A DNA stretch of 64,000 nt from a bacterium (lineage in GTDB: Bacteria; Krumholzibacteriota; Krumholzibacteriia; G020349025): the NCBI GenBank assembly GCA_031362565.1, contig JANLSU010000039.1, forward strand, positions 32,001-96,000, in the 5' to 3' direction. The notes under the pieces were generated by a model. That model was not told the origin of the DNA. It did not search any database and worked only from the letters and a program-made list of their open reading frames with translations. Within the stretch, counting starts at the first letter, position 1, and every line of letters begins with the position of its first letter. Position numbers and translations under genes: made by a program. This document shows, one piece after another, positions 22,612 through 56,538 of this stretch.

Positions 22612-22666
22612 CGGTTCCAATCTGACTCAAGGGGGGTTCGGGTGAAAGGCGTCGAGGTCGCCTTGG

Positions 22667-27906: not shown

Positions 27907-27983
27907 CGTAACACTCCCCCCTTGGGCAAGGCTCTGGAGTTGGACCGGGCAGCAGAAAGCGAACCGCAAGCGCGGCGACCCAC

Positions 27984-28148
27984 TCAGCAGGGAACCGCCT
28001 CCTCGATCAACATGATCGGGATGTCCTCGCGAATCGGATAGCGGAGCTTGCACCGTTCACAGCGCAGGAATTCGCCGCTCGCCTCCAGGACGACGCGGTC
28101 TTTGCATTTCGGGCAGGCCAGGATTTCGAGCAGTTCGGGCTTGAGCAT
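27984..28148 (-). CDS. Trm112 (UPF0434/YcaR) family protein, copy 1
   Basis: MLKPELLEILACPKCK...LRCERCKLRYPIREDIPIMLIEEA; GGAGG RBS. Confidence 0.9.
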   Translation of the reverse strand: MLKPELLEILACPKCKDRVVLEASGEFLRCERCKLRYPIREDIPIMLIEEAVPC

Positions 28149-32368: not shown

Positions 32369-32443
32369 CGCAACACTCCCCCTGGGCAGGCTCTGGAGTT
32401 GGACCGGGCAGCAGAAAGCGAACCGCAAGCGCGGGCAACCCAC

Positions 32444-40598: not shown

Positions 40599-42392
40599 AT
40601 GCTGCAACAGATGCGTTCGATGAAAACGCTGATTTTTTGGTTCGTCGCCATCACGTTCTTAGTCGGTTTCGTATTCTTGGGCGACGGCCTCAAGGTCGGC
40701 CGCGCCGATCGCCAGAGCCAAAAGTCCTACGTCGCCGAGATCAACGGCGAGAAGGTTCCGTACGAGACCTACAGCAGCTACGTGAACCAGCTCGTGGAAA
40801 TGGACCGGCGCCAGTACCAGCGCGAGGACCTGTCGACCTCCGACTACGACCGCATCGAAGCACAGGCTTGGGATGGAATCATCTCCGAAATGCTGGTGCG
40901 CCAAGAAGCCCAAAAACTGAATCTGCGGGCCGGCGACGACGAGATCGTCGCGACGCTCACGCAGAGCCCGCCGTCGTTCATTCGCCAGCGCTTCACCGAC
41001 GAGCAGGGACAGTTCAACCAAGCCGCATTTCAGAGCGCCGTCAACGATCCCAATTTCAACTGGGGCCCTGCGGAACAGTATCTGCGTTCGGCGCTTCCAT
41101 CATTGAAACTCGAAAAGATGGTGCGCGCCCGGGCCCAGGTCAGCGAAGACGAAGTGCGGCAGGAATTCGCCCGGCGCAATCAGCGCACCAAGGTGCGTTA
41201 TGCCGGTACCGCATGGCAGTCCATCGATTTGGGCAGCTGGACGCCAACCGACGCCGACATGCACGCGTTCTATGACAAGCACCCCGAGCGTTTCATGCGC
41301 GGCGAAACGGTGTCGCTCGAAATCATCAAGGTTGCCAAGAAGCCGAGCGCCGACGACGAGGCGGACGCCACCGACAACATCAAAAAGGCGCTCGACGACG
41401 AAAAGGCCGGCGAAACGTTCGCGCAAGTCGCCGAAATCTATTCCGACGATGCATCCGCGACGCGCGGTGGCGACTTGGGTTGGCTGAATCCGTCTGCACT
41501 GCCGGGACCGCTCGGCGAAGCGGCCGCGAAGCTGGCCGCCGGGCAGACGACACCCGAGGCAGTGCGCACCGAGAGTGGATACGTGCTCCTGCATGCCGAC
41601 AGCGTGCGCGCGACGGCCGCCGGCACCCAGATGCGCCTGCGGGAGATCGTTGTCATCCCTAAAACGAGTGGCGAGACTCTCGACGCGCTCCGCAGCCATG
41701 TGTTCGAAGTCGCACCCCGCGCCCAGAAAGACTTTGAAGCCGCGGCGCGCGAACTCGGCACCACGGTCGAGAAACTCGAGCCCGTGGAAGCGATGGGCTT
41801 TCTGCCGACTATCGGCTTTGCGAAGCGCCTGGTGGACTGGGCTTTTGCAGCGCAGCCGGGCGAAGTTTCCGACCCGATCGGCACGGACGGCGCGATCCTC
41901 ATCGCCAAACTAGTGGCCAAGAACCCCAAGGCGCCGCGGCCGTTCGACCAAGTGGTCGATCAGGTGCGTGCCGGTGCCCAGGAGCAGGCCAAGAAGGACC
42001 GGGCCCGGGCGCAGGTCGAGCGCGTGCTGGCGCAAGTGAAGGGCGGCGCGACGCTCGACGCCGCGGCCAAGGCGCAGGGCCTCACGGCGGGCGATCCGGC
42101 GCCGTTCAACTACTACGAGAGTGTCCCGGGCGTCGGTGGTGCGAACGAGTTCACGGCCGTGGCGTCGACGCTCGAGCCCGGCAAGACGAGCGGCGTCATC
42201 GAAACGAACGCCGGCACGTACATCGTCCAAGTCGTGTCGCGCGATGCGTTCGACGACAACGCCTACAAGACGCAACGCCAGAACGCGTACCAGAGCCTGC
42301 TCCAGCGGCGCGAGGCCGAAGTCTACGAGGCGTGGATCAAGGACGTTCGGGACCACGCATCGATCAAGGACCACCGGCGCCCACGCGTCTGA
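40599..42392 (+). CDS. PpiD/SurA-like peptidyl-prolyl isomerase chaperone
   Basis: MLQQMR plus N-terminal TM helix, VAEINGEKV, parvulin domain FAQVAEIYSDD...GGDLGW. Confidence 0.88.
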   Translation: MLQQMRSMKTLIFWFVAITFLVGFVFLGDGLKVGRADRQSQKSYVAEINGEKVPYETYSSYVNQLVEMDRRQYQREDLSTSDYDRIEAQAWDGIISEMLVRQEAQKLNLRAGDDEIVATLTQSPPSFIRQRFTDEQGQFNQAAFQSAVNDPNFNWGPAEQYLRSALPSLKLEKMVRARAQVSEDEVRQEFARRNQRTKVRYAGTAWQSIDLGSWTPTDADMHAFYDKHPERFMRGETVSLEIIKVAKKPSADDEADATDNIKKALDDEKAGETFAQVAEIYSDDASATRGGDLGWLNPSALPGPLGEAAAKLAAGQTTPEAVRTESGYVLLHADSVRATAAGTQMRLREIVVIPKTSGETLDALRSHVFEVAPRAQKDFEAAARELGTTVEKLEPVEAMGFLPTIGFAKRLVDWAFAAQPGEVSDPIGTDGAILIAKLVAKNPKAPRPFDQVVDQVRAGAQEQAKKDRARAQVERVLAQVKGGATLDAAAKAQGLTAGDPAPFNYYESVPGVGGANEFTAVASTLEPGKTSGVIETNAGTYIVQVVSRDAFDDNAYKTQRQNAYQSLLQRREAEVYEAWIKDVRDHASIKDHRRPRV

Positions 42393-42403
42393 CGGCGGCT
42401 GCT

Positions 42404-44629
42404 TTGTCCACCGCGACCGCGCCGCCCGAGACACGCAGACTCCCCGGTCTCGGGATCGTGTTCGCGCTCGCGGCGCTTGTGCGGGTCGTGGCGTTGGCGC
42501 TGCAACCCGGACTGACCTACGACGGCACGTACTACTTGCGGCAGGCCGAACGCCTGGCGCACGGCCATTTCAATGTCATCGGCTTCCCGCCCGGATTCCC
42601 CTGCCTCGTGGCGCTCGTGACGCCGCTCGTGGGCGATCCGGTGCTGGCGGCGCGTCTCGTCTCACTCGTAGCGGGCCTCGCGACGCTCGGACTCGCGCTC
42701 AGTCTCGCGCGCGGCATGCTGACGCCACGCGCCGCGTTCGTCGTCGGCGTGTTCTTGGCGCTCGATCCCGACTACGTCCGCACCAGTGTCGAAGTGCTGA
42801 GCGAACCGCTCTACGGTGCTCTGCTCTGCGGCGCGTTGGTCGCCTTTCGCGCCCGGCGTGATGCAATGGTCGGGGCGCTGCTGGGTCTGGCGTTTCTCGT
42901 CCGTCCGGAAGCGGCGATCGTGCTCGCCGCGCTCCTCTATTTGCGCGCCCGGGAGACCAAACGCGTCCCGTGGCAGGCCTGTCTCGGATGGATTCCGGTC
43001 GTCGCGTATGCGGGACTCGCATCGCACGCCGTGGGACATCCGGTGCTGACGCCGAAACAGGATCAGTGGGACTTGGGCGCCGCCACCTGGCAACGTGCCG
43101 GCACGCTGCTATGGACGCTGCACGGCATCTTCCCGATCGTGCTCGTACCCGGCGCCGTGTGGTGGGCCGTGCGGCACGATCGCAGTTTGCTCGTACCGCT
43201 CCTCCCCACCGTGCTGCTGCCGTTTTTCGCGATTCATATTCAGGAGCGTTTTCACGTCCCGGCGCTGCCGATGCTGGCAATTCTGGCGGCGGCTTGGGTC
43301 GAGTCGCTCGGAGCGCGTCCCCGCCGAGCGTGCCTCGTCTTGGCGGCGGTTGCTTGCGCGGCCGGGACCGCGCCGCGCTGGCACCACCTCGTGCGCCCCG
43401 AACCGCTGACGCCACGCGGGCGCGAAATCGGCACCGCCCTGCGCTCCAGCGTGCGCTTCGACGATCAGATCGCGGCGCGATTCCCCATCGTCCCGTACTA
43501 CGCCGGCGCCGGTTTCGTCCGCGCGCCGCGCACCGCATCGTATGAGGCGATGTTGGATTCGGTGCGCGCCGCCGGCGCGACTCACTTGCTGGTGCTCGAA
43601 AACGAGACCGCTGCCATTCTGCCACAACTGCGGCCGCTGTTCGACAATGCTCAGGTGGCCAGTTCGGAATCGCGTCTCGAAGCGGTCGCGTGGGTGGATG
43701 CACCGGTCGGCGCACGGGCCCTCTTGTACCGCTTCCGGCCGGTGCCGGTGCCGGCGGAGAGCGTCCGAGTCCTCGCGTCCGATGTCGTATCGCTGGCTTG
43801 GAACGATCCGTGGCTCTGTACGAGCGACCGCGGTGGCCGCCTCCGCATCGTGGAGCCGGGCGAATTCGGGTCGACGCCGCTGCCGCCCGGCCGCGAACCC
43901 AGTGCTGGGGCCGGCGACGCCGCCATCGTCACGGTGCGCAACGACGGCCTGACGCGTTGGATCTGCAGTACCGACTTGCGCACCGGACACAGCACCGAGT
44001 TTGCCGCGACGCGCGGCGACGCACCCGCCTGGCCGGCGGCAACCGGCGACGCGATCCTCTATGTGCGTACCGCGCCACCCGGCGGACTGCGAGCCCTCGA
44101 TCCCGAGAGCGGCGAAATTCGCCCGGTGCGCTTCGCGGCCATCGAAGCCAGCGTCGCACGGCCGGTTTTCATCACGGCGCGCGGCCGCGACCTCAGTGTG
44201 ACGTTCGAGCGCGGCGGTAAGTCGAGCGTCGTCGCGACCGGCGAGTGGCCCGGTTGGACTGCGGGACACGACACGCTCGACGTGCCCGGTCGCTGGGCGA
44301 CGGCGTTGCAACTCCACGATCCACGCACCGCGTGGGTTCCCGACACCGACGCATTGTTTGCAAGTGTGACGCTCGCCGACTCGACTCCCGACGTCGCGGC
44401 GCTCTGCGTCGTGCAGGGCGCGACGCTCCGCCGGCTCACGTACGGCGTCGTCGAACCGCGTGCCGCCATCGCGCAGCGTCGAGCCGGTGGGCAACTGACG
44501 CTCGTCTTCGTGGCCGGGCGCAACGACTTGTGCCGCGCCCCCCTGCGCGTCGAGGACTTGCGCATTCCCACCGTGCGCGTCTTCCCAGCCCCCTCGGCCC
44601 GGCACGAATCCGGCTCTTTTCGCCCCTAA
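42404..44629 (+). CDS. GT-C (ArnT/PMT-like) membrane protein with C-terminal beta-propeller-like domain
   Basis: TYDGTYY..QA, FPPGFP, LSEPLY, GLAFLVRPEA, many TM helices, soluble C-terminus. Start is uncertain. Confidence 0.6.
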   Translation: MSTATAPPETRRLPGLGIVFALAALVRVVALALQPGLTYDGTYYLRQAERLAHGHFNVIGFPPGFPCLVALVTPLVGDPVLAARLVSLVAGLATLGLALSLARGMLTPRAAFVVGVFLALDPDYVRTSVEVLSEPLYGALLCGALVAFRARRDAMVGALLGLAFLVRPEAAIVLAALLYLRARETKRVPWQACLGWIPVVAYAGLASHAVGHPVLTPKQDQWDLGAATWQRAGTLLWTLHGIFPIVLVPGAVWWAVRHDRSLLVPLLPTVLLPFFAIHIQERFHVPALPMLAILAAAWVESLGARPRRACLVLAAVACAAGTAPRWHHLVRPEPLTPRGREIGTALRSSVRFDDQIAARFPIVPYYAGAGFVRAPRTASYEAMLDSVRAAGATHLLVLENETAAILPQLRPLFDNAQVASSESRLEAVAWVDAPVGARALLYRFRPVPVPAESVRVLASDVVSLAWNDPWLCTSDRGGRLRIVEPGEFGSTPLPPGREPSAGAGDAAIVTVRNDGLTRWICSTDLRTGHSTEFAATRGDAPAWPAATGDAILYVRTAPPGGLRALDPESGEIRPVRFAAIEASVARPVFITARGRDLSVTFERGGKSSVVATGEWPGWTAGHDTLDVPGRWATALQLHDPRTAWVPDTDALFASVTLADSTPDVAALCVVQGATLRRLTYGVVEPRAAIAQRRAGGQLTLVFVAGRNDLCRAPLRVEDLRIPTVRVFPAPSARHESGSFRP

Positions 44630-44686
44630 AGCCGTCCGGGCGCCTGGACGCGACTTGACTTCGACATTCACTTCTTGCGGCAGGGC

Positions 44687-46243
44687 ATGACGTTTCCGAC
44701 CACCGAACGGCGTTTGCGCCGCGACCTCGCTGCCATTCGTGGCGATGGGGTCGCGTTCAGCCTCATGGTGGGGTTGGGCGAGACCTATATTCCCGCCTTC
44801 GCACTTGCCGCCGGACTCGGTTCGGTCACGGCTGGATTGGTGACGAGCGTGCCGCTGCTCGGCGGCGCCTTGTTGCAGCTCGTGTCGCCATTCGCAGTGC
44901 GGAAAATCGGCTCACGGCGCACTTGGGCGGTCGCTTGCGTGACCCTGCAGGCGGCGTGCTACGCACCGCTCGCGATCGCGGCGTGGTGCGGACGTGTTCC
45001 GGCCGTCGCCCTGTTCGCGATCACGTGTCTCTACTGGGGCGCGAGCATGGGCGCCGGGCCGGCGTGGAGCGGCTGGGTCGGAACGATCGTCCCGGCTCGA
45101 GTGCGCACGACGTACTGGGCGGAGCGCAGCCGTCTCGGCCACGTGGCGCTGCTCGCCGGCTTGCTGGTGGGCGGCGCGGTGCTGCACTTTTGCGCGCCGC
45201 CGCATCGCACGGATCTCCTGGCCTTCGCTGCACTGTTCGCCGCGGCCGGGCTCTGCCGCGCCGTTTCGGCGCGTTGCTTGGCAAGCATCCCGGGCGAAGT
45301 CGCCCCGCCACCGGCACGGGTCTTGGGAACGCGCGCGGTGATCGCGCGTCTCGGCAGCGGCGAAACCGGTCGCTTGTTGCGTTTCGCGCTGGCGCTGCAA
45401 GCCGCGGTGCAAGTCGCGGGGCCCTTCTTCACGCCCTACATGCTGCGGCAACTGCATCTGCCCTACACGGCGTATGTCATTCTGCTCGCCGCGTCCTACG
45501 GCGCCAAGATCATCAGCATGCCGCTCGTGGGCCGCGCCGCACGCCGTCACGGTGCGCTGCGTTTGCTGCGTCTCGGTGCTCTGGGCATCGCGCCCTTGCC
45601 GGCCCTTTGGCTCGTGTCGTCATCGCTGCCCTGGCTCATCGCGGTGAACGTGCTCTCGGGCGTCGTCTGGGCGACCTACGAACTGTCGCTCTTTTTGTTG
45701 GTGTTCGAGACCATCGAGGACACCGAGCGCACGAGTGTGCTCGCGGCCTACAACGTCGTGAATGCATTCGTGACCGTCGGCGGTGCGGCACTCGGTGGGA
45801 TTCTCTTGCAGCATGGCGGCATCTTCGCGCCGGTGTTCGCGCTGTCGTCGATCCTGCGCGTTCTGACCCTGCCACTCGCAGCGCGGCTCCGCGCGACAGG
45901 TTCCGGCCGCACGCTCCCGAGCTGGACGTACGGGGTCACCGGGCGCCAGGTTTTGGCGGCTTGTCGGGCACCGCGGGCACAACAGGCGCTACGGGCGCCG
46001 GGCGTACGCGCTTTGGGTTGCCCCGCACTTCCAGATTCGGGCCGAGATGGCACTGCACGCACAGAGCCCGTTTGGGTTCGCGGAGCAACAACCGTTCGTA
46101 GTCGCTGGAATGCGGCGAGTGACACGAGGTGCACTCCAAATCCATCCCCGTCCGTGGATCCTTCGCCGGGCCCTGATACGGATGCGGGTGCACCTTCGAC
46201 ACATCGTGGCATTGCATGCACAACACCGACTGCGGTGCCTTGA
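44687..46243 (+). CDS. MFS transporter (frame runs on into the cytochrome gene)
   Basis: About 12 hydrophobic helices, AWSGWVGTIVP..R..Y, GPFFTPYML; the last ~100 aa are antisense to the 42-heme gene. Confidence 0.78.
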   Translation: MTFPTTERRLRRDLAAIRGDGVAFSLMVGLGETYIPAFALAAGLGSVTAGLVTSVPLLGGALLQLVSPFAVRKIGSRRTWAVACVTLQAACYAPLAIAAWCGRVPAVALFAITCLYWGASMGAGPAWSGWVGTIVPARVRTTYWAERSRLGHVALLAGLLVGGAVLHFCAPPHRTDLLAFAALFAAAGLCRAVSARCLASIPGEVAPPPARVLGTRAVIARLGSGETGRLLRFALALQAAVQVAGPFFTPYMLRQLHLPYTAYVILLAASYGAKIISMPLVGRAARRHGALRLLRLGALGIAPLPALWLVSSSLPWLIAVNVLSGVVWATYELSLFLLVFETIEDTERTSVLAAYNVVNAFVTVGGAALGGILLQHGGIFAPVFALSSILRVLTLPLAARLRATGSGRTLPSWTYGVTGRQVLAACRAPRAQQALRAPGVRALGCPALPDSGRDGTARTEPVWVRGATTVRSRWNAASDTRCTPNPSPSVDPSPGPDTDAGAPSTHRGIACTTPTAVP

Positions 46244-49226
46244 GAATCTTGCGCGTCGTACTGCCGTGTGGAGAGTGGCAATTCGTACAAGTCTCTACAT
46301 CCGGGTGTTTGTTCTTCTTGGCAAACAGCCCGCGGTCATGACACGCGACGCAGGTCGATTGCAGATCGGCCTTCCGCAACAATGCGTCCGTGGTTCCGCC
46401 ATGCGGGGAGTGACACTCGAGACAGCTCTTGCCACGCAGTAGCGCCACATGCGGCGCGGTCTTGGTCAGATCCGCCTTGTGGTCGTCGTGGCAGGTCAGA
46501 CACAACTCGGGTGCTGGCGCGACGAGTTGCTTCTGCGGCGTGTGGCATGCATCGCATTGGTTTTCGGCGAATGGCGCGTGCTGTTTGGGTGGCAAGAGTG
46601 CGCGCTGACCACTGCCGTGGGGATCGTGGCACTCGGTGCAGGCTTGAATGCCGTCCGCGAATCCTTTGTGTTTGGTGCGGAACACGGCGGCGTTCGCATC
46701 ATGACACTTCACGCACAGTTCGCGATCGGTCGCCGTCCGGCGCAGCCCGCGCGCCTTGCCCTCATGCGGGGCGTGACATTCCAGGCACTTGCCGCTACGC
46801 GCCGGCGAATGCCCATGCGCGCCCTGGGCACGTTTGACGATGTCGGCGTGACACGTGGCACACAGCTCCGCAACCGGGCGCACCAGCAACCCAGGCTCGA
46901 CGCCTTCGTGCGGCCGGTGGCACGTGATGCACTGGCCCTCGCGCACGGGGCGGTGCACGAGCGTGGTATCGCCGGCAGTCGTGACATCGGTGTGACATTC
47001 ACGACACATCTGTCCTGGCTTGGCGACGAGCAGTGGCTTGATGCTGGACGCATGCGGCGCGTGGCAGCTCGTGCACTCACCCGCTTCGAACGGCGCGTGT
47101 TGGGCGTGTCCGGGCGGGGTCTTCGGCGGCGTGTGGCATGTCCCGCAAGTTTCGCCCACCGCGGCCGCCAGTTCAACCTTCGCCCCGGGGGCGGGCGGTT
47201 TGTGGCAGGACGTGCAATCACCTTCCGCAAACGGCGCGTGGACTTGGGCCCGCAGCAGTCCCTTCTTGTCCGACCGATGCGGGTCGTGACACGTGGTGCA
47301 CGAGGCCTCGGTGACTGGGAACTCCTTGTGCGCAGCGCGCAGTTTCGAGGTGCCCAGATCGTGGCAGGCGGTGCAGGCCTTCACGAGCGCGATCTTGCCG
47401 TCCGCGCCGCGCGTCCGGTGGGCGTCGTGGCAGGTGTTGCATTCTCCGGCCCCGACCGGGGCGTGGACAACACCCTTCGACATCAGTGCGTCATGCAAGG
47501 CCGTGTGGCACTGGAAACAAAGCTCCGACCCTGTATTCACGAGCAGCGCCTTGGTTCCGGCCGTTGCATGCGGGCTATGGCAATCGATGCACTCGCCCTT
47601 CCGAACCGGTGTGTGCATCTGGGCCGCGGGCACGGCCGCCAGTTTCTCTCCATGACATTTCGCACACAGACCGGCGGCGTTCTGGACCAGCAGGCCAGGC
47701 GTCGTCGACTGGTGCGGAGCGTGGCAGGTGCCGCATTCGCCCGCCGCGAAAGGCGGGTGCTGGGTGGCCATGCGGAGTTCGTCGGCTTGGGCACGGTGGC
47801 AACTCAGACACAGTTGCGGGGTGGGCTTTTGCAGCATCGCCTTCTGATCATTGCCATGCGGGTCATGGCACGTCGTGCATTCACCGCTCGCATAGGGCAG
47901 ATGGATCACATCGTTCGGTCCGGCAGGCTTGGCCGCGCCATGGCATTCACGGCAATCCGATTCGACATCCTTCTTCAACAGCGCATGCTCGGTGCTCGCA
48001 TGCGCCACGTGACACGTCGAGCAGGCCTCCTGCGCCGGCGGATGGGGTGACTTCGCGGCCTGCACCTTGGCGGCCAACGGGCCGTGACACGCCGTGCACA
48101 GTGCGGGGTCCACCTTTTGCGTCATGTGCGGCGCCCCGCCGCCGTGCGGCGTGTGGCACACCGTACAATCGAAGTCGCGGAAGGGTGCGTGCACCGAGGC
48201 CTTCTTGGCCTCGTCGCGAATGCCCTGATGGCAAGGAGTACACAGCGTTTCAGCGTCGCCGCGCAGCAGCGACGGGCGTTGCGACTGGTGCGGCGCATGA
48301 CAAAACAGGCAGTCGCCCTCGGCGGCCGGTGGATGGCCATCCTTTGCCGCGGCAACCGCCTGCACCGGCGCGTGGCAGGTGACACACAGTTGTTTCTTGT
48401 CCGCCTGCAGTTTCTCGGGATGCGCCGGCAGGTCGGTGTGGCATGCCTCGCACTGGGCGCGCCCATAGGGCGCGTGAATGTACGCGCCCTTCTTCGCGGT
48501 CGACTCGGCGTGCGGGTCGTGGCACGAAGTACAAGATGCGCCCGCCACTTCTGGTTTACGGTGCAGTTCCGGCAACCGCGCGACGTCACCATGGCAGCGG
48601 GCGCACATTTTCGATTCGGGTTCCAGTAAGAGGTGCTTTTCGGGAGCCGAGTGGCCACCGTGGCATTCCTGGCAGCGCCCTTGCGCGAAAGGCGCGTGCT
48701 GCTTCGGGGATGCCATCGCTGCGGCGATCCGGGTGTGGCACGCGGCACACGCTGGTGCCCAGGAGGCAGTGGATGTCGTCGCCGCAGCAGCCGGTTTCTT
48801 CGCCGCGATCGCGCCTTTCGGCGCCGGCGGGCGCGTCGCGGTCGAATCGCTGCGCGCGGCTTCGCGCAAGAGGCCTTTGTTGTTTGCCGCATGCGGGTCG
48901 TGGCACGACGTGCACGAGACATCCGCTTGGTGCAAGTGATCGGAGCCGGCTCCGCCGGGCGCTTTTACGTTCTTGTGGCACTCGAGGCAGAGTTCGGGTT
49001 GTTTGGCGGTGAGAACGAGCTTTTGCGTGAAGCCATGCCGCTTATGGCAGGCCTCGCAGTTCTCTTTCTTGACGGGGTCGTGGACGAAGGCCTTCGCGTA
49101 GGTCTTGCGCGCCGCGGCATGACACTCGTAGCACGAGCGACTCGCCTGCCCGAGAACGCGCCCGGGCCATGCACACAGCAGCAGGGCGAGCAAAATCTGG
49201 CCGCCGACCCACCGACCCGTATTCAT
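45936..49226 (-). CDS. Giant multiheme cytochrome c (42 CxxCH motifs, paired-CxxCH repeats)
   Basis: Manual count of 42 CxxCH in HxP..CxxCHxPH...LCxxCH repeats; signal peptide; Pro-rich tail. Confidence 0.95.
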   Translation of the reverse strand: MNTGRWVGGQILLALLLCAWPGRVLGQASRSCYECHAAARKTYAKAFVHDPVKKENCEACHKRHGFTQKLVLTAKQPELCLECHKNVKAPGGAGSDHLHQADVSCTSCHDPHAANNKGLLREAARSDSTATRPPAPKGAIAAKKPAAAATTSTASWAPACAACHTRIAAAMASPKQHAPFAQGRCQECHGGHSAPEKHLLLEPESKMCARCHGDVARLPELHRKPEVAGASCTSCHDPHAESTAKKGAYIHAPYGRAQCEACHTDLPAHPEKLQADKKQLCVTCHAPVQAVAAAKDGHPPAAEGDCLFCHAPHQSQRPSLLRGDAETLCTPCHQGIRDEAKKASVHAPFRDFDCTVCHTPHGGGAPHMTQKVDPALCTACHGPLAAKVQAAKSPHPPAQEACSTCHVAHASTEHALLKKDVESDCRECHGAAKPAGPNDVIHLPYASGECTTCHDPHGNDQKAMLQKPTPQLCLSCHRAQADELRMATQHPPFAAGECGTCHAPHQSTTPGLLVQNAAGLCAKCHGEKLAAVPAAQMHTPVRKGECIDCHSPHATAGTKALLVNTGSELCFQCHTALHDALMSKGVVHAPVGAGECNTCHDAHRTRGADGKIALVKACTACHDLGTSKLRAAHKEFPVTEASCTTCHDPHRSDKKGLLRAQVHAPFAEGDCTSCHKPPAPGAKVELAAAVGETCGTCHTPPKTPPGHAQHAPFEAGECTSCHAPHASSIKPLLVAKPGQMCRECHTDVTTAGDTTLVHRPVREGQCITCHRPHEGVEPGLLVRPVAELCATCHADIVKRAQGAHGHSPARSGKCLECHAPHEGKARGLRRTATDRELCVKCHDANAAVFRTKHKGFADGIQACTECHDPHGSGQRALLPPKQHAPFAENQCDACHTPQKQLVAPAPELCLTCHDDHKADLTKTAPHVALLRGKSCLECHSPHGGTTDALLRKADLQSTCVACHDRGLFAKKNKHPDVETCTNCHSPHGSTTRKILKAPQSVLCMQCHDVSKVHPHPYQGPAKDPRTGMDLECTSCHSPHSSDYERLLLREPKRALCVQCHLGPNLEVRGNPKRVRPAPVAPVVPAVPDKPPKPGAR

Positions 49227-49233
49227 GGCAGCG

Positions 49234-49911
49234 TCACTCGGGCTTCCGGGTTGGCGTGCTGTTGTCGACAGCGGCAGGCTTGACCGGCGTTGCCGGCGCC
49301 GCATGCTTCACGGGGCGCATCGTGGCAGGCGGAGCCAGCCGTGTTGAACGGGGGGCCGGCTTGGCGCTCGCGGCCTGCAACGGCTTCGCAACGCCCGGGC
49401 CCGTCCATCCCTGGATTTCCTTGAGCTGGAAAGTGAAGAAGGACTTCGGAGAGAAGTGCGGCGGGAAATTCAAGAAGGCATAGACACTGTCCGCCATCGC
49501 GCTGTCGCCGCGCACGAAGACATGAATCGCAGGGTTTTTCAGCGAATCGGATGCGGACAGGACCTTGCCGTCGATGGTGCGGAAGTCGGGATACAGATCC
49601 CGGACGACGGCCTCGTTCTGCGTGTCCCCGAGCATGAAGGGCTCGCCGATGTGGACCCGATGTTCTTCCTTCCAGTCCGGATACAGGCGGCTGCCGGCTT
49701 CGATCACCAGCAGCAGCCGGGGGTCCTGGACCGGCGGGGAACTCCGAACCGTTACGGGCTTGAGGGCGGCCGGGGCCTCCGCCGCCGGAACCATTGCGAC
49801 GGCGAGTACAAGCACCATCCCGAAGACCACCGCACCAAGGCCAGCCATCCACAACAAGTCGCCGAGTGCGAGCCTGGGTGGCGATTGATTCGTGGACTCA
49901 AGGTCTTTCAT
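49234..49911 (-). CDS. Membrane-anchored hypothetical protein (DUF2155-like)
   Basis: N-terminal TM helix; PDF...SASDSLKNPAI motif. The family assignment is from recollection. Confidence 0.5.
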   Translation of the reverse strand: MKDLESTNQSPPRLALGDLLWMAGLGAVVFGMVLVLAVAMVPAAEAPAALKPVTVRSSPPVQDPRLLLVIEAGSRLYPDWKEEHRVHIGEPFMLGDTQNEAVVRDLYPDFRTIDGKVLSASDSLKNPAIHVFVRGDSAMADSVYAFLNFPPHFSPKSFFTFQLKEIQGWTGPGVAKPLQAASAKPAPRSTRLAPPATMRPVKHAAPATPVKPAAVDNSTPTRKPE

Positions 49912-49916
49912 CCGAC

Positions 49917-50573
49917 TCACTTCCTTTCGCGAGAAGCGACGCGAGATTGCTGCGCCTGTTCCATGGCGGCCGCGAACGGGCGCACCGCTTCGTGTGCGAC
50001 CGCCGCGGAAAGCTGTTCCATCGCATTGACGCGGCCGAGGCCGAACAGCCATTCGCCGTCCGCGCCATCTCTGCCGTGAACCGTCGACCACACGACACGT
50101 GAGCCGGGCGTGCGCACCAGCCGCAGTGCCAGCGAAACTTGCGGTGTCCGTCCCTCGCGGTCGTCCCGGCCGCCGTACGCGAGCAACGCACCCTGGAGGA
50201 GCCCGTCTGCATGCAGTTCCGCGCCGATTCGATCGGCCAAGTCCGGCGGCAAACGGTCGAGCAGCAACCAGGGCTCCTTGGCGAGCGCGTCTTCGACGGC
50301 GCCGGGATCCACGACCTCGAGGCCTGGAATACGCGCCAATTCGTTCGCGAGTGCCAAGCCGAGCCGTTGCGGCGCATCGCGATCGGGCGAGTAGTTGGCG
50401 AGTGGTAACAGCGCGACGCGGAAAGGCCGGCTGGAGCTATCGGCCGACGCGAAGGGCCGCTCTTCCGGCGCGATGAAGGTGCGTGGTTGCGGCACGCAGC
50501 CCAGGGCGCAAGCCAGCAAGGCGAAAGCACTGGCCCGAGCTGCACGCCGTACTTCACGACGCAGGTTTCGCAT
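49917..50573 (-). CDS. Lipoprotein, PelC/CsgG/LpoB-like alpha-beta fold
   Basis: Lipobox ALGC; RVALLPLANYS; ADGLLQG; VSLALRLV...RVVWS. Confidence 0.7.
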   Translation of the reverse strand: MRNLRREVRRAARASAFALLACALGCVPQPRTFIAPEERPFASADSSSRPFRVALLPLANYSPDRDAPQRLGLALANELARIPGLEVVDPGAVEDALAKEPWLLLDRLPPDLADRIGAELHADGLLQGALLAYGGRDDREGRTPQVSLALRLVRTPGSRVVWSTVHGRDGADGEWLFGLGRVNAMEQLSAAVAHEAVRPFAAAMEQAQQSRVASRERK

Positions 50574-51147
50574 GCCGAGTCACCTCCGGCAACGTGCGCA
50601 AGAGTTGGCGACAAGTCGCCGCAGCCAGACCGTCGATCGTGCGTTCGGGGCGGCCCAAGAAGGGCACTCCGGGGCCGCTGTGCCGCGTGGCACTGGCGCT
50701 CCACACGAGCCGCCCGGTCGCCACGTCCACGAAGCGCACTTCCAGCGCCACCAGCGGATAGGAATCACGCCCATTCTGCACCATCGTGAATTCGCGCACC
50801 GTGCCGATGAATACGCCTTGCACGTCGGTTTCCTTGCCTAACTTCGTGAGTTCCCCGCTGGACCATGGGTTCGCATAGGGCGTGCCGCCGCGCACCCGCG
50901 TCATGGCGCTTGCGAACTGGCCGGGTTCCAACACTTGATCGAACTTCCGTTGCAGCAGTTCTGAAAAGAACACGTCAGTCACCTTCTCGCCCGCCAGCCG
51001 GTCTTGCGCCAGTGACGAGAACGGAATGACGGCGACTCGCTCGTAGAAGGGCATGTCCGCATCGGGATGCACGAAGCGTGTCATGCCTCCGCAGCCGCAC
51101 AGGAGGGCCAGGGTCGTGACCCACGCCGTCTTGCACCCCATTCTCAT
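50554..51147 (-). CDS. Lipoprotein, PelC/CsgG/LpoB-like alpha-beta fold
   Basis: Lipobox LCGC; RVAVIPFSSL; VQGVFIGTVREF; VALEVRFVDVATGRLVWS. Start is uncertain. Confidence 0.72.
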   Translation of the reverse strand: MRMGCKTAWVTTLALLCGCGGMTRFVHPDADMPFYERVAVIPFSSLAQDRLAGEKVTDVFFSELLQRKFDQVLEPGQFASAMTRVRGGTPYANPWSSGELTKLGKETDVQGVFIGTVREFTMVQNGRDSYPLVALEVRFVDVATGRLVWSASATRHSGPGVPFLGRPERTIDGLAAATCRQLLRTLPEVTRHAKPAS

Positions 51148-51184
51148 CGTCGTCCTTTGCAACCATGACGCGCCCGAGCGCTGG

Positions 51185-52762
51185 TCAGAAGGTCTTCTCG
51201 ACGGTCACACTGTACGAGCGGCGGTCCACGAGACCGGTACTTTGCGTTTCACGGGCATTGCCGCGCAGGCGCGTGCCGTTCGGAAGTTCGAATCCCAGAT
51301 CGAACCCGAACACCCGCTCCGACCCCACGTCGGCCTTGCCACTCACCTGGCGCCACAGCCCGTTCGCTGCCGCCACCATCCGCGGCGTCAGCCGCCAGTT
51401 CGCATTGAGTCCCGTGTGGTGTTCCGCACGGCGAACACGACCTTGGCCGGACAACCGGCGCCAGGTGCCACTGACACTCGTCGAGGCCGACGGATCGAAC
51501 GAACCAGTGACCTGCCACTCACGATCCTGTTGCCCGAGTCCCTCGACGTCCGGCAACTCATCCTGACGCCACGAGACGTTTATGCGCGTGGCGGCGGTGG
51601 GGCGGGTGCGCACTTCGGCCAACTCATGCCATTGCGTTCCCACCGAGCTCGCAGCGCGAATGCGGGCCGCGCGCACCTCCGCCCGGGCCTCGAGGCCGGG
51701 CCGCAGGCGGCCGTCGAGCGAGCCGTACGCCGTGCTCCGCGGCGCGTCGCCGCCGGCACCCGCGAACTGCACCGCGCTCATCCATCCAGTCTGCAGCACG
51801 ACGGCGCGCCAAACGTCGTGACGATAGAGCATTTCGAGCTGCATGTAGTCACTCACATGATTGCTGACCCCGTCGCCTTGGCGGCGGTACTCGCGCACGG
51901 CGCGCAGGTCGAGCCCGGTAAACGGACGCACGCTGAGGTCGGCGGTCAGATCGCGCTCGCCGATCCTCTGGTTACTGGGCGCCGCGTTGTCGTCAGCCCG
52001 GCCCCAGCGTTCGATCACATTGGCGCTGGCCGAAACGCGCCGCTCCGGTGTCCACGCCGCTTGCCCCTGGAGGGTTTGCGTCTGGGTCGAGCGCCGCCGT
52101 GCGAAAGATTGGTATTTCGCCACCAGGCCGTCGTACTGCCCCGTCGTGGTCAATTTCGTCCACGAACGCTCGGCGTGGACACCGCCGCGAAATTCGTCGG
52201 TGCGTTGCGGGGCACCGATGGCGCCGTTGGCTCGAGCGTCAATGCGCCGCACCCCGGCGTTCACACCATACCCGTTGCGACCCCATCCGGCGCGCAGTTG
52301 GCGATCCTCGGACGACGATCGCAGCCCGGCGATTTCACGGTCGAGTCGATTGTATCCGGCGTCGACTTGCGGGCCCCGGCGGGGCGTCCAATGGAGTCCG
52401 AGCTGGGATTGGCGTTCACGCGAGCTGCGGTTGCCGGCGACGTTGCGCTGCCACGGCGCCAGTTGCGCATCGGCGCGCCACCGCGTCGCGCGCAGGTCGG
52501 CAAAGACGCGGCTCCGCAGCAAATCGGTTTCTCGGACGGGCAGGAGCGACTGGTATTGGAGCGAGGCGCGAAGGTGCAGGTCCAAGCCGCGCGGCAGGGG
52601 CTGGCGGCCGCCGATTTCGTACAGATGCCGCATCGCGTCACCTCCGTCGATTCCCTGGACCCGGTTCACGGTTCCCAGGTACCGGCCTTCGATCGCGAGC
52701 GCGGGGTGCACGGCGAGCGCGGCGCCGATCCCGATCGCAAGCTGCAGGTGCCGGGTCCGCAT
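51185..52762 (-). CDS. Putative outer-membrane beta-barrel (porin-like)
   Basis: Signal peptide, continuous amphipathic strands, C-terminal YSVTVEKTF beta-signal. Confidence 0.75.
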   Translation of the reverse strand: MRTRHLQLAIGIGAALAVHPALAIEGRYLGTVNRVQGIDGGDAMRHLYEIGGRQPLPRGLDLHLRASLQYQSLLPVRETDLLRSRVFADLRATRWRADAQLAPWQRNVAGNRSSRERQSQLGLHWTPRRGPQVDAGYNRLDREIAGLRSSSEDRQLRAGWGRNGYGVNAGVRRIDARANGAIGAPQRTDEFRGGVHAERSWTKLTTTGQYDGLVAKYQSFARRRSTQTQTLQGQAAWTPERRVSASANVIERWGRADDNAAPSNQRIGERDLTADLSVRPFTGLDLRAVREYRRQGDGVSNHVSDYMQLEMLYRHDVWRAVVLQTGWMSAVQFAGAGGDAPRSTAYGSLDGRLRPGLEARAEVRAARIRAASSVGTQWHELAEVRTRPTAATRINVSWRQDELPDVEGLGQQDREWQVTGSFDPSASTSVSGTWRRLSGQGRVRRAEHHTGLNANWRLTPRMVAAANGLWRQVSGKADVGSERVFGFDLGFELPNGTRLRGNARETQSTGLVDRRSYSVTVEKTF

Positions 52763-52775
52763 GGCGACCGTGCCT

Positions 52776-53867
52776 TCATTGCCCCGGATCGGGGTTGTGC
52801 ACGTTGTGTGCCGCGGGTGAGGTGTAGTCGTTGCCGTGGCAGCCATAGCAGCTCTTGAGGTCGCTCGTGGCGTGCCCATCGCGCCCGGAGAGAGTGTTCA
52901 TGACGATCCCTTGCACGGACTGCGAGCCGGGGATTCCGTCCGCCGGGATGTGACATCCAAAACAGAATTGGCGGGCTTGCGCCGGGTCGTTGACGGTGTC
53001 GTCGAGGCCGCTCCAGCCCGGACGTTGGTCCGAGATCAGGTAGGCGTTGGGGCGCACTCCGTCATTCCCCACCGAGCCATGGACACCGTGGCAGTCGTAG
53101 CACGCCAGTTTGTCGCCGACTTGCACCTGCGGCGGCCAGGACAGCGCGATGGCGGGATTCTTCCGGATGCGGTGGCCGGCGTTCGGTCCGGAGACCGCCG
53201 AGTCATAGAAGTCACCGATGGTGCGATTCGACACATCCATTCCCGGCGGGCCTGCATCCGAATGGCAACGCACACACTGTGCGTAGGCCGCGGGCGGGCC
53301 CGTCTCGGCATGGCCTGAGATCCCGCCGTACGTTCCCACCAACAGGTCGCGCGCCTCCGTGCCATGCGGGTCGTGACAGTTCATGCACGAGCCCTCGCCG
53401 CTCGGGTCGTGCCGCGGCATATCGGGGTCGCTGGCATGCGGCGATACGTAGTGGCCCGTGGAGGTCGTGGTCGGATCGCGGTACGTGCGCTCGCCGGGCC
53501 AGCGGCCGCGCAGGTCGAGCCCCGCCCGCCGCACCCCGCCGGAGTTTATTTCGAAATACCCGGCATCCGGAGTTCCCGTGGGGAGTCGATCCAATTCACG
53601 CAGTGGATACGTCGACGGCCGCACCGAATGACACGTCAGGCACAGCCCGTTGTCGTTGGTCGTGAAGAGCAGGTTCGGGTTCGTGGCGCCCGCATCGCCA
53701 TGTTGCGGATGGCACTGGATACACTGGCCGCGAGTCGAGGGCTGGGTGACGACACGCGAGACGCCGTCTTGGGCATCGCCATGGGGATCGAAAACCGGGG
53801 TTTGCGCAATTGCGGGTTGGGCAGAGGCGGTAAGAATCAGGAGGATCAGGAAGAGGGCCGGTCGCAT
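52776..53867 (-). CDS. Heptaheme cytochrome c
   Basis: CIQCH, CLTCH, CMNCH, CVRCH, CYDCH, CFGCH, CYGCH; signal peptide. Confidence 0.9.
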   Translation of the reverse strand: MRPALFLILLILTASAQPAIAQTPVFDPHGDAQDGVSRVVTQPSTRGQCIQCHPQHGDAGATNPNLLFTTNDNGLCLTCHSVRPSTYPLRELDRLPTGTPDAGYFEINSGGVRRAGLDLRGRWPGERTYRDPTTTSTGHYVSPHASDPDMPRHDPSGEGSCMNCHDPHGTEARDLLVGTYGGISGHAETGPPAAYAQCVRCHSDAGPPGMDVSNRTIGDFYDSAVSGPNAGHRIRKNPAIALSWPPQVQVGDKLACYDCHGVHGSVGNDGVRPNAYLISDQRPGWSGLDDTVNDPAQARQFCFGCHIPADGIPGSQSVQGIVMNTLSGRDGHATSDLKSCYGCHGNDYTSPAAHNVHNPDPGQ

Positions 53868-53917
53868 CGTGCACTCCCACCCCGGCCCGACGCGACGCCG
53901 ATGCGACTCTGTGTTCG

Positions 53918-53993
53918 GTCCGGGCTCCGACAGTGGCCGGATTGGCGGAGCCCGGACGATGCAGCGATCCCGTGGAACCAGGGCCGTTCCACG
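53918..53993 (-). terminator. Two tandem stem-loops after the OmcS-like gene (stabiliser or partial terminator)
   Basis: 12-bp stem 53918-53929/53946-53957 and 8-bp stem 53971-53978/53986-53993; no U-tract. Confidence 0.5.
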
Positions 53994-54002
53994 CCGAACG
54001 CG

Positions 54003-55112
54003 TTAGAAGGCAGTGCTGCTGCCACCCATGCTATGGCACTGGCGGCACAGGTTGCGAGTATCGACGCCCGCATCACCCTGCTCGGTAACCGCGCCCGAAC
54101 CCAACATGAAGATCAGACCGAACGCGTTCTGATTCCCATGACCCTTGTGGCACGACATGCAGGACGCCGTCAAGTCCGTGTTTCCAATCGCGTAACTGCC
54201 GGCACGCACGCCGGTCGGCGACATGACTTGCACTTGGTTGCGATTTGGGACGACGGGGCTCGTACCCACGAAGCGCGCCAGGCTCGAGTGTCCGCCACCG
54301 AGCGCGCCGATGTTCACCGTCGATGCCGGGTGACGCTTGAACTCGTCCAACAACCCGAGCGGGTTCGGGGCGGGCGCGAGCACACCGCCAATTTCCGCGC
54401 CACCAAGCGAGCCATGGAAGTCTGTATGACAGCTCTTGCAGAAGGTCGCGTACTGCGATTCCGTCGTCACTGGTTCGTTGAACGTGATGTGGTTGTAACC
54501 GTAGTGGTTGGCGTTCACGCCGCTCGACACGTCTTCGAACACCCAACGAGTCAGGTCGTTCGAGGGTTCGACGTCGCCGCGCGAGTAGCTGAGGCTGATT
54601 CCCGATGGGCCGTACAAATTGCGGTAGCCGCCGTTGCTCGGCAGACCGCTCTGCGTCCGGCCATGCGGTGCGTGACAATCGACGCAGTTCAAGCCGGTCA
54701 GGTTGCGCCACGTTCCGCCAGGGGCCACCAGGCCCGAACCCAGAGTGTGGCCGTTTTCCGGATGGTAGCTGCCGGTGCTGCTCACGTCATTCAGTGCGCC
54801 CGCTTGACGCACGTACCCGGCGCTATGGGTTTCGAGAACGTCAGGCGCGAAGTTCTGGCCGTCATGGCAGGACAAGCACAGGTCGTTGATGTCATTGCGC
54901 AGCAGGAATTCGTACGGTCCGGCGGCGCCGAGCGCCGTGAAGTTTCCGCCACCATTGGCGTTGTAACCGTGGGACTGGCTGGCGTGCATCACATGGCAAT
55001 CTGCACAAATGAGATTGACGCCGGTATGCCAGTCGCCCGCAAAGGCAACTCCGGCCACCAGAGTCATCACGCTGCTCAAGACCACGACGTTTCTTAGGAT
55101 CTTCTTCGTCAT
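54003..55112 (-). CDS. OmcS-like hexaheme cytochrome c (candidate nanowire subunit)
   Basis: Six CxxCH. WHTGVNLICADCHVMH parallels OmcS FHSGGVAECEGCHTMH; shared APGGT, CxxCHxPHG, YRxL, CHTDxH, RHPA and RxLCxxCH landmarks. Confidence 0.85.
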   Translation of the reverse strand: MTKKILRNVVVLSSVMTLVAGVAFAGDWHTGVNLICADCHVMHASQSHGYNANGGGNFTALGAAGPYEFLLRNDINDLCLSCHDGQNFAPDVLETHSAGYVRQAGALNDVSSTGSYHPENGHTLGSGLVAPGGTWRNLTGLNCVDCHAPHGRTQSGLPSNGGYRNLYGPSGISLSYSRGDVEPSNDLTRWVFEDVSSGVNANHYGYNHITFNEPVTTESQYATFCKSCHTDFHGSLGGAEIGGVLAPAPNPLGLLDEFKRHPASTVNIGALGGGHSSLARFVGTSPVVPNRNQVQVMSPTGVRAGSYAIGNTDLTASCMSCHKGHGNQNAFGLIFMLGSGAVTEQGDAGVDTRNLCRQCHSMGGSSTAF

Positions 55113-55126
55113 GATGTCTCACCTCT

Positions 55127-56131
55127 TCAGTTCGACCCTGGCTCCTCTCGCCGTGGAGTCGGAGCCGTCGTGTTGGACTCGGAACCGGGGTCCGGGCTCT
55201 TCGTCATCCCGACTTCAAGAATCTGGATCCGGGCGCCCGCCCGCTCCAGGACCACGAGTCGATCGGCGGCGAGAAACGCGCACGAAACCGGGTGGATGAA
55301 CTCTCCTGGTTCGCGACCTCGTCCACCGATACGGCCAAGGTACTTTCCCTCCGTGCTGAACACGCTGATGGAGCTTCGAATCGTGTCGGTGATCCACAGC
55401 GTGTTCTCAGGTCCCCAGGCGGCGTGCGTTGGCAACGAGAAGGTGCCGGCGCCCTCGCCATGTGATCCAAACATCGCAATCTGTGTGCCATCGGATTTGA
55501 ACACCCCAATCGGAGTCTCCGCATCCGCATCGACGGTTGAAATCAGCGATTCGTCAGCATTCACCGCGACACAAACCGGGGCCCGAAACGGTGCTTCGCC
55601 GACGTGATCGATGCGCAGGTCGATCGTGCCGTTCGGCCGAACGGCGAAGATCGACGAACTCGGCCCGCCGATCGCCAGCCAAATACGGCCACTCGGCGCC
55701 ACCGCGACGTCGTTGATTTGACCTGCCGGCAGCGAATCGAGCCATGCCAGGGTCGCGCCGGTCGCCGTGAGGACCTCAAGGCCCCGGCCATTGCCGGCGA
55801 CGTACAGCCGGGCCCGTGAATCGAACGCTACGGCCCGCGGTTCGCACTCCCGCCCCTCGGAATCGCTTGTGGCACAAGGGATTCCGCCGCGGGACCGGCC
55901 CGTGCCATCGAACAGCAGCAGGCGGTGATTGCCGGTATCGGCGACCACGAGGAGGCCGCGAGCAGGGTCAGCAGCCAGTCCGAGTGGGCCATGGAAGGCG
56001 TCGAGCGGCGACGGGCCATACCAGATCCGCGGCACCGAAAGGATGACGGGCGCCTGCGCCGCGGCGGCCGCGGCGACGCCGGCGAGGATCGAGGCGTACA
56101 CGAGGGTCCGGCAGAGGCGGCGGGCGCGCAT
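55127..56131 (-). CDS. NHL-repeat beta-propeller, exported
   Basis: FHGPLGLAAD...VVADTGNHRL; FGSHGEGAGTFSLP; IGGRGREPGEFIHP; signal peptide. Confidence 0.88.
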   Translation of the reverse strand: MRARRLCRTLVYASILAGVAAAAAAQAPVILSVPRIWYGPSPLDAFHGPLGLAADPARGLLVVADTGNHRLLLFDGTGRSRGGIPCATSDSEGRECEPRAVAFDSRARLYVAGNGRGLEVLTATGATLAWLDSLPAGQINDVAVAPSGRIWLAIGGPSSSIFAVRPNGTIDLRIDHVGEAPFRAPVCVAVNADESLISTVDADAETPIGVFKSDGTQIAMFGSHGEGAGTFSLPTHAAWGPENTLWITDTIRSSISVFSTEGKYLGRIGGRGREPGEFIHPVSCAFLAADRLVVLERAGARIQILEVGMTKSPDPGSESNTTAPTPRREEPGSN

Positions 56132-56350
56132 GGTTTTCCTCCGCAGAACAGGGCTGGGGTAACCCACTTCCTCCGGTTCTTCGGTGCGAGGATTCGGTGT
56201 ATTCAAACGACTCAACGCGCGGGTCGAGTGTGTCCTTTCGCTCGGGCAGGTCCTTTGGCAACGCTCGAACGGACGCACTGTGTCCTTTCGCATCAGGCTC
56301 GGGGCCCCCCCTCGGCGCCCCAACGGGGGGTCGGCCGTTGGGTGGAGAAC

Positions 56351-56366
56351 GCAGCTTGCACGCCAA
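56351..56366 (-). promoter_or_regulatory. Sigma54-like promoter TTGGCGTgcaagCTGC
   Basis: GG-N10-GC spacing, about 220 nt upstream of the cytochrome operon. Confidence 0.55.
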
Positions 56367-56538
56367 CGCAACGCATGGGGATCGTGAAATCAACGCCGAT
56401 CGACAGGCAGTTGGACCTGCCGTACGTCGTGCATGCACGTGCGCCGCGAACTTGCGCTGCGGGGTGGAGTCCGCGGCATTGTGGGAACGACGCGCCGGCG
56501 CCGCGGCACGGCCGCCGGCGTTTCATCGCTCCCCAGGG

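Follow-up and report, generated by a model that had tools for sequence, protein, structure and literature searches.

Cytochrome filament structures have so far come from a few cultured Desulfobacterota and archaea, and the question asked here is whether an uncultured bacterium of another lineage carries genes for a filament of the same kind. It is raised by an eight-gene cluster in a 64,000-nucleotide stretch of a genome assembly (GCA_031362565.1, contig JANLSU010000039.1, positions 32,001 to 96,000 of the forward strand), which is called the window below. An original prediction, made from the letters of the window, had read 45936-56131 as eight co-oriented, closely spaced genes with 55 CxxCH haem-binding motifs, forming an OmcS-like nanowire system for extracellular electron transfer. 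Its coordinates and motif counts were confirmed: eight closely packed genes lie on the minus strand, and the 55 motifs are divided over three cytochromes (6 + 7 + 42).

The reference system is that of Geobacter sulfurreducens, where the omcS-companion (osc) cluster spans GSU2504-GSU2493 (PMC13194489; bioRxiv 2025.11.06.686851; these and the other articles cited are used for the parts of their text that were available). Judged by sequence comparison, the cluster in the window is very probably homologous to this osc/OmcS system. We also consider it probable, with rather less confidence, that it is a divergent, self-contained version of that system.

The hexaheme protein and OmcS

The original prediction expected the hexaheme protein to align to OmcS, which family profiles bore out. 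Of the candidates scored, 794 reached E <= 0.001 as homologues, with the best 120 of these being listed, and an alignment of 50 homologues was made (A1). In this alignment the six CxxCH motifs are invariant, as are seven histidines outside the motifs (29, 43, 122, 150, 233, 261 and 325), and exactly six motifs were counted in 74 of the 77 proteins called as hexaheme orthologues. When searched against the PDB, the A1 profile returned one significant match, the OmcS structure 6EF8 (E 8.7e-9), in three colinear stretches that start with the first residues of the mature protein and reach as far as its last haem motif.

Relatives of OmcS itself were gathered by scanning metagenome contigs with a degenerate pattern for the 8-residue OmcS haem-1 motif, which gave 119 stretches, with 77 loci kept. 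Both of the two hexahemes tested from these OmcS-type loci matched 6EF8 over its full length (E 1.2e-134 and 5.5e-100). Aligned with hhalign, A1 and an alignment of 44 OmcS-type proteins (A7) were related with a probability of 99.8% (E 7.3e-28, 291 columns, identity 25%). Haem motifs 1-5 were paired by hhalign and motif 6 by HMMER, in the same order along the chain. The invariant non-motif histidines of A7 (H28, H42, H136, H173, H285 and H364) align, in order, with H29, H43, H122, H150, H261 and H325 of the hexaheme. These six conserved histidines, including the N-terminal pair that corresponds to His2 and His16 of OmcS, are the predicted second axial ligands of the haems. H43, which lies in the motif CxxCHxMH, is the counterpart of His16 of mature OmcS, and in the structure papers of 2019 this residue is said to ligate a haem of the neighbouring subunit.

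The two groups of hexahemes are well separated. In a FastTree phylogeny of 88 hexahemes, which took in open reading frames (ORFs) of 320-430 aa with six motifs and left out others, a long branch with 100% support separated the 74 rows of the compact type, to which the window belongs, from the 14 OmcS-type rows. Within a clade of 12 rows (100% support), the window protein was grouped with sequences labelled Eisenbacteria, Krumholzibacteriota and Gemmatimonadota.

Companion genes and two cluster architectures

A scan of genome collections yielded 265 stretches that encode hexaheme relatives; the 79 loci retained from it are called the related loci below. Their titles name Eisenbacteria, Krumholzibacteriia, Zixibacteria, Ignavibacteria, Latescibacterota, Gemmatimonadota and Fibrobacteraceae, and also Acidobacteriota, Armatimonadota and Planctomycetota. 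By tblastn, the NHL propeller was detected in 70 of the 79, the heptaheme in 62, the two lipoproteins (LP1 and LP2) in 64 and 60, the small protein in 34 and the 42-heme cytochrome in 63. The barrel was detected in 13, and an ORF of the right size occupied its place in 45 loci. Four flanking genes were conserved in none of the 79. The eight-gene module thus recurs, with unrelated flanks, in dozens of metagenome-assembled genomes (MAGs) labelled as relatives of the Fibrobacterota-Chlorobiota-Bacteroidota (FCB) group. Since the whole 5.4 Mb genome holds just 19 stop-to-stop frames with at least three CxxCH motifs, the 42-motif frame being the largest, and since the same genes recur together in other genomes, the cluster is not a chance assembly.

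Orthologue profiles built from the related loci were searched against the ORFs of the 77 OmcS-motif loci, 23 of which were mapped. In 15 of these 23 a shared gene order was found, with NHL, hexaheme, lipoprotein and multihaem companions: an NHL propeller (300-400 aa) is followed by one hexaheme or two, then by another propeller (about 480 aa), a 720-790-aa protein, an LP1-like and an LP2-like protein (the latter of 375-420 aa), a 547-641-aa protein and many-haem cytochromes. The NHL propellers beside OmcS relatives matched the profile of the cluster's own propeller at E 1e-19 to 8e-34, the LP1-like proteins matched at about 1e-32 to 1e-41 and the LP2-like proteins at up to 3.9e-58. Pfam identified the protein of about 480 aa as a YncE-like propeller and those of 547-641 aa as SurA-like prolyl isomerases. 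The remaining 8 mapped loci had no lipoprotein companions; two of them had no hexaheme ORF, two or three had a hexaheme standing alone and the rest were incomplete. Companions of the kind that the original prediction placed in the omcS neighbourhood are therefore found beside omcS-type genes for the NHL propeller, the barrel, LP1, LP2 and, in the form of a 26-heme and 16-heme pair, the 42-heme cytochrome.

For the barrel, the link is to the 720-790-aa protein. The 525-aa window protein matched no known family; its AlphaFold2 (AF2) model has a mean predicted local distance difference test score (pLDDT) of 93.6 and shows 28 strands joined by short turns. Its family (A3) aligned end to end with the 720-790-aa family (A8) at a probability of 98.8% (E 5.6e-17, 515 columns), A8 holding an insert of about 200 aa relative to A3. 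In Foldseek the model resembled large outer-membrane barrels in general.

The lipobox cysteine is invariant in 41 homologues of LP1 and in 40 of LP2, and the two proteins are paralogues (hhalign 100%, E 1.2e-44). Against the PDB, the LP1 profile found PelC first (5T11, E 2e-9; 9H80, E 2.8e-7), followed by GNA1162 and LpoB, and Pfam assigned LpoB to 18 and CsgG to 16 of the 41 family members. In Pseudomonas aeruginosa, twelve PelC lipoproteins are described as forming a ring where the PelB barrel faces the periplasm (PMC12141448). The likeness to PelC suggests, by analogy, that LP1 and LP2 could form a ring beneath the 28-strand barrel. LP1 is homologous to PelC, but the systems differ in other respects: the cargo in the window would be a haem protein and not a polysaccharide, there are two paralogous lipoproteins and not one, the 28-strand barrel is unrelated to PelB as far as the two were compared, and no other Pel genes are present.

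The 42-heme cytochrome consists of 21 Pfam Paired_CXXCH_1 stretches, with 26 motifs up to residue 677 and 16 beyond it. In one of the OmcS-type loci (L083), a 26-motif and a 16-motif protein are adjacent, and these were colinear in BLAST with residues 2-675 (E 2e-86) and 678-1060 (E 4e-54) of the window protein, respectively, although in so repetitive a protein other registers score too. An uncut frame of 42 motifs occurs in 27 of the 79 related loci, while split forms of 26 + 16 (L023, L069) and 25 + 16 motifs (L055) occur in loci labelled Acidobacteriota or Planctomycetota. The 42-heme protein is the fused counterpart of the 26-heme and 16-heme pair beside OmcS genes, and because it is found both split and fused, the total of 42 haems is kept across very distant lineages.

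Two products of the cluster stand apart. On its own, the heptaheme sequence found nothing meaningful among PDB sequences with phmmer. Its family (A2) matched the hexaheme family by hhalign (97.6%, E 2.9e-12, 120 columns), and a second part of A2 matched the N-terminal three-haem module of the OmcS-type family (95.7%, E 9.1e-9, 113 columns), so that the heptaheme is, by profile comparison, a distant and rearranged relative of the OmcS family. In the OmcS-type loci, a search for its counterpart gave weak matches only, all falling on hexahemes. Most homologues have six standard motifs plus one position at which the second cysteine and the histidine (C79, H80) are invariant; this could be a haem-binding site whose motif deviates from the standard. 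Five loci with Zixibacteria or Ignavibacteria titles (L021, L027, L031, L041 and L058) carry a protein of about 715 aa with 12 CxxCH motifs in its place, in the order large cytochrome, heptaheme position, barrel, LP1, LP2, NHL propeller and hexaheme. In the small protein, a domain of about 120 aa is conserved, with D96, F110, N126, A128, P151, H152 and F161 invariant in 30 homologues. The hydrophobic N-terminus of these homologues was read as a signal peptide, and in several of them this stretch ends in G-C or A-C, a possible lipobox. No Pfam family, no PDB relative and no match in the OmcS-type loci was found for it; the leads from the Atlas were below 0.9, with DUF2155 on 13-22% of the members of look-alike clusters.

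We conclude that there are two architectures, one Geobacter-like and one compact, and that the window carries the compact one. Shen et al. 2025 reportedly described OscD as a beta-propeller, OscH as a prolyl isomerase and OscE, OscF and OscG as 'channel-like'. In the available text of PMC13194489, OscD is connected with the morphology of the wires, secretion with OscE, OscF and OscG, and folding with OscH. An eight-gene block, GSU2500-2493, is described downstream of a hexaheme, with 26 haems in GSU2495 (bioRxiv 2025.11.06.686851). The osc and window clusters share an OmcS-family hexaheme that is accompanied by an NHL propeller and a large barrel, a pair of PelC/CsgG-like lipoproteins and very large multihaem cytochromes with 42 haems between them, and the relative gene order agrees. 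However, the window hexaheme is about 70 residues shorter, the barrel lacks the insert of about 200 aa and LP2 has about half the length; the window cluster has neither the YncE-like propeller nor the SurA-like peptidyl-prolyl isomerase (PPIase), the 26-heme and 16-heme proteins are fused, and the heptaheme and the small protein are added.

A looser likeness exists to the OmcE clusters of Desulfuromonadia, in which a filament cytochrome is also accompanied by multihaem cytochromes, beta-propellers and a large beta-barrel, proposed to be a secretion pore or an anchor (PMC13712944). OmcE, however, is a tetrahaem protein without sequence similarity to OmcS, whereas the window subunit belongs to the OmcS family, and the five phyla for which OmcE homologues are listed in the available part of that article include no FCB lineage.

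The nanowire reading of the original prediction is thus supported, as a matter of homology to OmcS and osc, and its novelty is lower than had been supposed. OmcS homologues in a Krumholzibacteria MAG, detected with FeGenie, were reported as a first in 2020 (bioRxiv 2020.09.22.307553), a deep-mine survey recorded iron-cycling genes in taxa that include Zixibacteria, Latescibacterota and Eisenbacteria (PMC8478452), and the osc machinery is called widespread and ancient in the title of Shen et al. 2025, as cited in PMC13194489. The cluster is therefore a divergent variant of a published system, not a new kind. For the compact architecture, the PelC likeness and the 26 + 16 fusion, no published description was found in a search that did not extend to the survey of Shen et al. 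2025 and its supplements.

Position in the genome and the host

The features are collected in Table 1. In the order of transcription, the coordinates leave gaps of 14, 135, 13, 37, -20 (an overlap), 5 and 7 nt between the genes. The propeller encoded by the first gene scored 47.6 bits against the Pfam NHL cut-off of 20, and its ATG is preceded at 8 nt by GGAGGA.

Table 1. Cluster genes in the order of transcription, and the region upstream of them
Feature	Position in window	Strand	Basis
NHL-repeat beta-propeller, 334 aa, Sec signal peptide, first gene	55127..56131	-	Pfam NHL
OmcS-family hexaheme cytochrome, 369 aa, signal peptide ending AFA, candidate filament subunit	54003..55112	-	six CxxCH
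Heptaheme cytochrome, 363 aa, distant OmcS-family relative, particular to the compact cluster type	52776..53867	-	seven CxxCH
28-strand outer-membrane beta-barrel, 525 aa, C-terminus ...EKTF	51185..52762	-	AF2 model
PelC-like outer-membrane lipoprotein LP1, 197 aa	50554..51147	-	profile against PDB, lipobox
PelC-like lipoprotein LP2, 218 aa, LP1 paralogue	49917..50573	-	hhalign, lipobox
Small conserved protein, 225 aa, N-terminal hydrophobic helix	49234..49911	-	alignment of 30 homologues
42-heme cytochrome, 1096 aa, 21 paired-CxxCH units	45936..49226	-	42 CxxCH, Pfam Paired_CXXCH_1
Upstream non-coding region with two exact GCGAAAGGACACA copies, possible control region, membership uncertain	56132..56538	-	repeat count

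The 13-nt direct repeat GCGAAAGGACACA lies about 100-150 nt upstream of the NHL gene, at 56229-56241 and 56279-56291, with the copies 50 nt apart; the window holds no further copy, and chance would predict 0.06. The repeat is a possible regulator site. It was absent from all other loci compared, the sole match apart from these being L080, which is this region itself. A scan that does not cover FCB-type promoters found no sigma-70-type promoter and no minus-strand terminator. The GC content at third codon positions is 0.74-0.79 in the cluster genes and 0.77-0.86 in housekeeping genes, and because these ranges overlap, the composition gives no sign of recent transfer.

On the plus strand, genes for a PpiD/SurA-like PPIase, a PMT_2 (glycosyltransferase family 39-like) membrane protein and a major facilitator superfamily (MFS) transporter (40599-46243) converge on the 3' end of the cluster. 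The PpiD-like gene (40599-42392) was considered as a part of the cluster and rejected, with one match in the 79 related loci (L020, E 3.7e-6); its similarity to the SurA-like PPIases of the OmcS-type loci was weak (E 2.7e-6) and covered the rotamase domain alone. The PMT_2 gene (42332-44629) and the MFS gene were rejected likewise, with matches in 0/79. Glycosyltransferase family 39 genes are described as accompanying the OmcE clusters of Geobacter (PMC13712944).

A second NHL/ScyE-like propeller gene is found far from the cluster at 16660-17619 (-). Other multihaem loci of the same genome lie on two further contigs, at C105:42215-45761 (+) and C129:13413-22694 (-), and the groups observed comprise adjacent frames with 20 and 16 CxxCH motifs and frames with 10, 9 and 3. 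Among the OmcS-type loci, L141 (1268-4561, -) encodes an LP2-like domain fused to four MBG-domain repeats in a protein of 1097 aa, and L090 (2709-5693, +) has an MFS/spermine-synthase fusion protein between the hexaheme and the propeller.

The original prediction had pointed to an FCB-related host from porU genes. Two tandem PorU genes (23836-28053 and 28280-32443, -) indeed score 538 and 535 bits against the NCBIfam cut-off of 420, and they adjoin a homologue of the type IX secretion system (T9SS)-dependent, M6-like inactivated metalloprotease (19306-22620, -). By eye, no obvious T9SS C-terminal domain was seen in the proteins of the cytochrome cluster. In GTDB, the host shares its class with MAGs titled Krumholzibacteriia (L007) and Latescibacterota (L033), and its family with L004. 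DnaE identity to ten named MAGs was 39-54%, highest for L007 (54%) and L033 (53%), a range that barely separates phyla. Because of the two PorU genes and the shared GTDB class, the host is an uncultured bacterium of the FCB group, most likely of the Krumholzibacteriota in the sense of GTDB, and not a member of the Desulfobacterota. The trait is patchy there, since the hexaheme (E <= 1e-10) was found in 20 of 201 genomes sampled from the host's GTDB phylum, its own included, and in 1 of the 6 other genomes of its family.

A chimeric contig is not indicated at the cluster, as an independent 22-kb Logan contig covers the cluster from end to end, continues into the flanks and differs at two letters; it comes from a freshwater-sediment run that may itself represent the source sample. 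Three short contigs of a soil metatranscriptome (X3) cover the 3' end of the NHL gene, the 5' end of the heptaheme gene and the spacer between hexaheme and heptaheme at about 93-98% identity. They were rejected as evidence of expression, because they come from a relative, have low depth and could reflect DNA carry-over. One related locus, titled Candidatus Saccharimonadales (L040), holds a full cluster of the compact type, and its hexaheme groups with rows labelled Eisenbacteria. This looks like an error of binning or labelling, rather than a bacterium of the candidate phyla radiation with an outer-membrane system.

Filament, conduit or store

If the cluster is a version of the OmcS system, all eight products would be exported to the periplasm, in keeping with the signal peptides and lipoboxes seen in their sequences. 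Haem would be attached to the cytochromes by System II (Ccs) proteins encoded elsewhere; two CcsB-like System II genes lie in the genome outside the cluster and could serve this purpose. An outer-membrane channel would be formed by the 28-strand barrel and, beneath it in the periplasm, a ring of LP1 and LP2, as the PelBC system and the 'channel-like' description of OscEFG suggest. The 42-heme protein may act as the periplasmic conductor that feeds this channel, through which the hexaheme would pass, or at which it would dock, most likely to polymerise head to tail on the surface as OmcS does. The heptaheme and the NHL propeller might, more speculatively, be adaptors or assembly factors. True filaments of the hexaheme are a real possibility, which we place a little short of probable.

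Several observations weigh against a self-contained OmcS-type system. As a single sequence, the hexaheme found no OmcS match in the PDB with phmmer. Its AF2 model, made without haems, is poor (mean pLDDT 51), and Foldseek returned nothing from the PDB at E <= 0.001 for this poor model. A prediction of two hexaheme copies with four haems scored 0.18 against a mark of 0.42 and was weighed neither way. Among the proteins associated with OmcS wires in Geobacter, the YncE-like propeller, sought by tblastn with five such proteins, had no match in the window and was present in 4 of the 79 related loci (L020, L023, L055 and L067), and homologues of the SurA-like PPIase were present in 4 (L020, L023, L055 and L069), none of them of the compact cluster type. 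All five of these loci are labelled Acidobacteriota or Planctomycetota. No inner-membrane quinol oxidase is encoded in the cluster, and the naming of metagenome ORFs as OscE, OscF and OscG is tentative, as it follows second-hand descriptions of the osc cluster. Finally, most Geobacter OmcS paralogues are not known as wire formers although they carry the same motifs (bioRxiv 2025.11.06.686851, in its accessible part), and therefore conserved motifs do not predict polymerisation.

The last of these points would also fit a porin-cytochrome conduit, in which the heptaheme, the hexaheme or both would sit as monomers in or on the barrel, like MtrA and MtrC in MtrB, and would receive electrons from the 42-heme protein without any polymer. 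The absence of the propeller and PPIase that are linked to OmcS wire morphology and folding would fit such a conduit, as would the barrel's top TM-score in the PDB, which is to MtrB (6R2Q_B, 0.51, 7% identity). A large barrel adjoining multihaem cytochromes is shared with MtrCAB of Shewanella. However, the MtrB match is generic, as TonB-dependent receptors, ushers and LptD score alike by Foldseek E-value, and the barrel has no match to the MtrB family at the sequence level. The cytochromes differ too: the hexaheme has no lipobox, it and the heptaheme score 22.7 and 37.5 bits on the MtrA/DmsE model TIGR03508 against a cut-off of 192, which only the repetitive 42-heme protein exceeds, and neither of the two reaches the cut-offs of the OmcA/MtrC models. 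Moreover, the barrel, both lipoproteins and the NHL propeller are homologous to genes beside true OmcS relatives, and a PelC-like ring would be a feature of polymer export, not one of Mtr-type conduits. We consider the conduit unlikely on this evidence, while taking it seriously.

A filament might also be built from the heptaheme, or from both small cytochromes as a mixed polymer, and not from the hexaheme alone. The heptaheme does carry the OmcS-family N-terminal three-haem module, including CxxCHxxH, and it is kept in 62 of the 79 related loci, but colinearity with OmcS across all six haems is seen in the hexaheme alone, true OmcS genes have no heptaheme beside them, and the 12-motif protein of about 715 aa replaces the heptaheme in the Zixibacteria and Ignavibacteria loci, which makes such a filament improbable. 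Less probable still, and the least so of the readings considered, is a system with no extracellular electron transfer, that is, a periplasmic electron store or a detoxifying reductase next to a barrel for some other export. The family is known from sequence and the organism is uncultured, which leaves room for such a role, but for six of the eight components homologues stand beside OmcS, and a purely periplasmic function would hardly account for a dedicated 28-strand barrel and its ring-type pair of lipoproteins.

Within the reading as an OmcS-type system, the most specific proposal is a complete minimal cable across the envelope, in which the 42-heme protein as a periplasmic conductor of fixed length, the heptaheme adaptor and a gated barrel would lead to an extracellular homopolymer of the hexaheme, itself a shortened OmcS type, without the propeller and PPIase of Geobacter. 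The histidine-donating, OmcS-type module of the heptaheme would start or anchor the polymer inside the barrel, and a mixed ring of LP1 and LP2 would gate it. Taken jointly, this proposal is doubtful. If true, the FCB group would have its first cytochrome nanowires, and the base or anchor of a filament, so far missing for any cytochrome nanowire, would be identified; how cytochrome filaments cross the outer membrane and are anchored there are given as open questions in the available text of PMC13712944.

The compact variant is conserved in many uncultured lineages of sediment and soil, which widens the possible range of such filaments. Because it lacks both the YncE-like propeller and the SurA-like PPIase, these Geobacter proteins may be dispensable, and the compact gene set offers a smaller unit for heterologous reconstruction. 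The PelC-like lipoproteins, as part of a possible ring-under-barrel exporter, the 28-strand barrel and the constant number of 42 accessory haems sharpen the hypotheses about the machinery. For the organisms themselves, the cluster supports a capacity for electron exchange with minerals or between species in bacteria of the Krumholzibacteriota, Eisenbacteria and Zixibacteria type.

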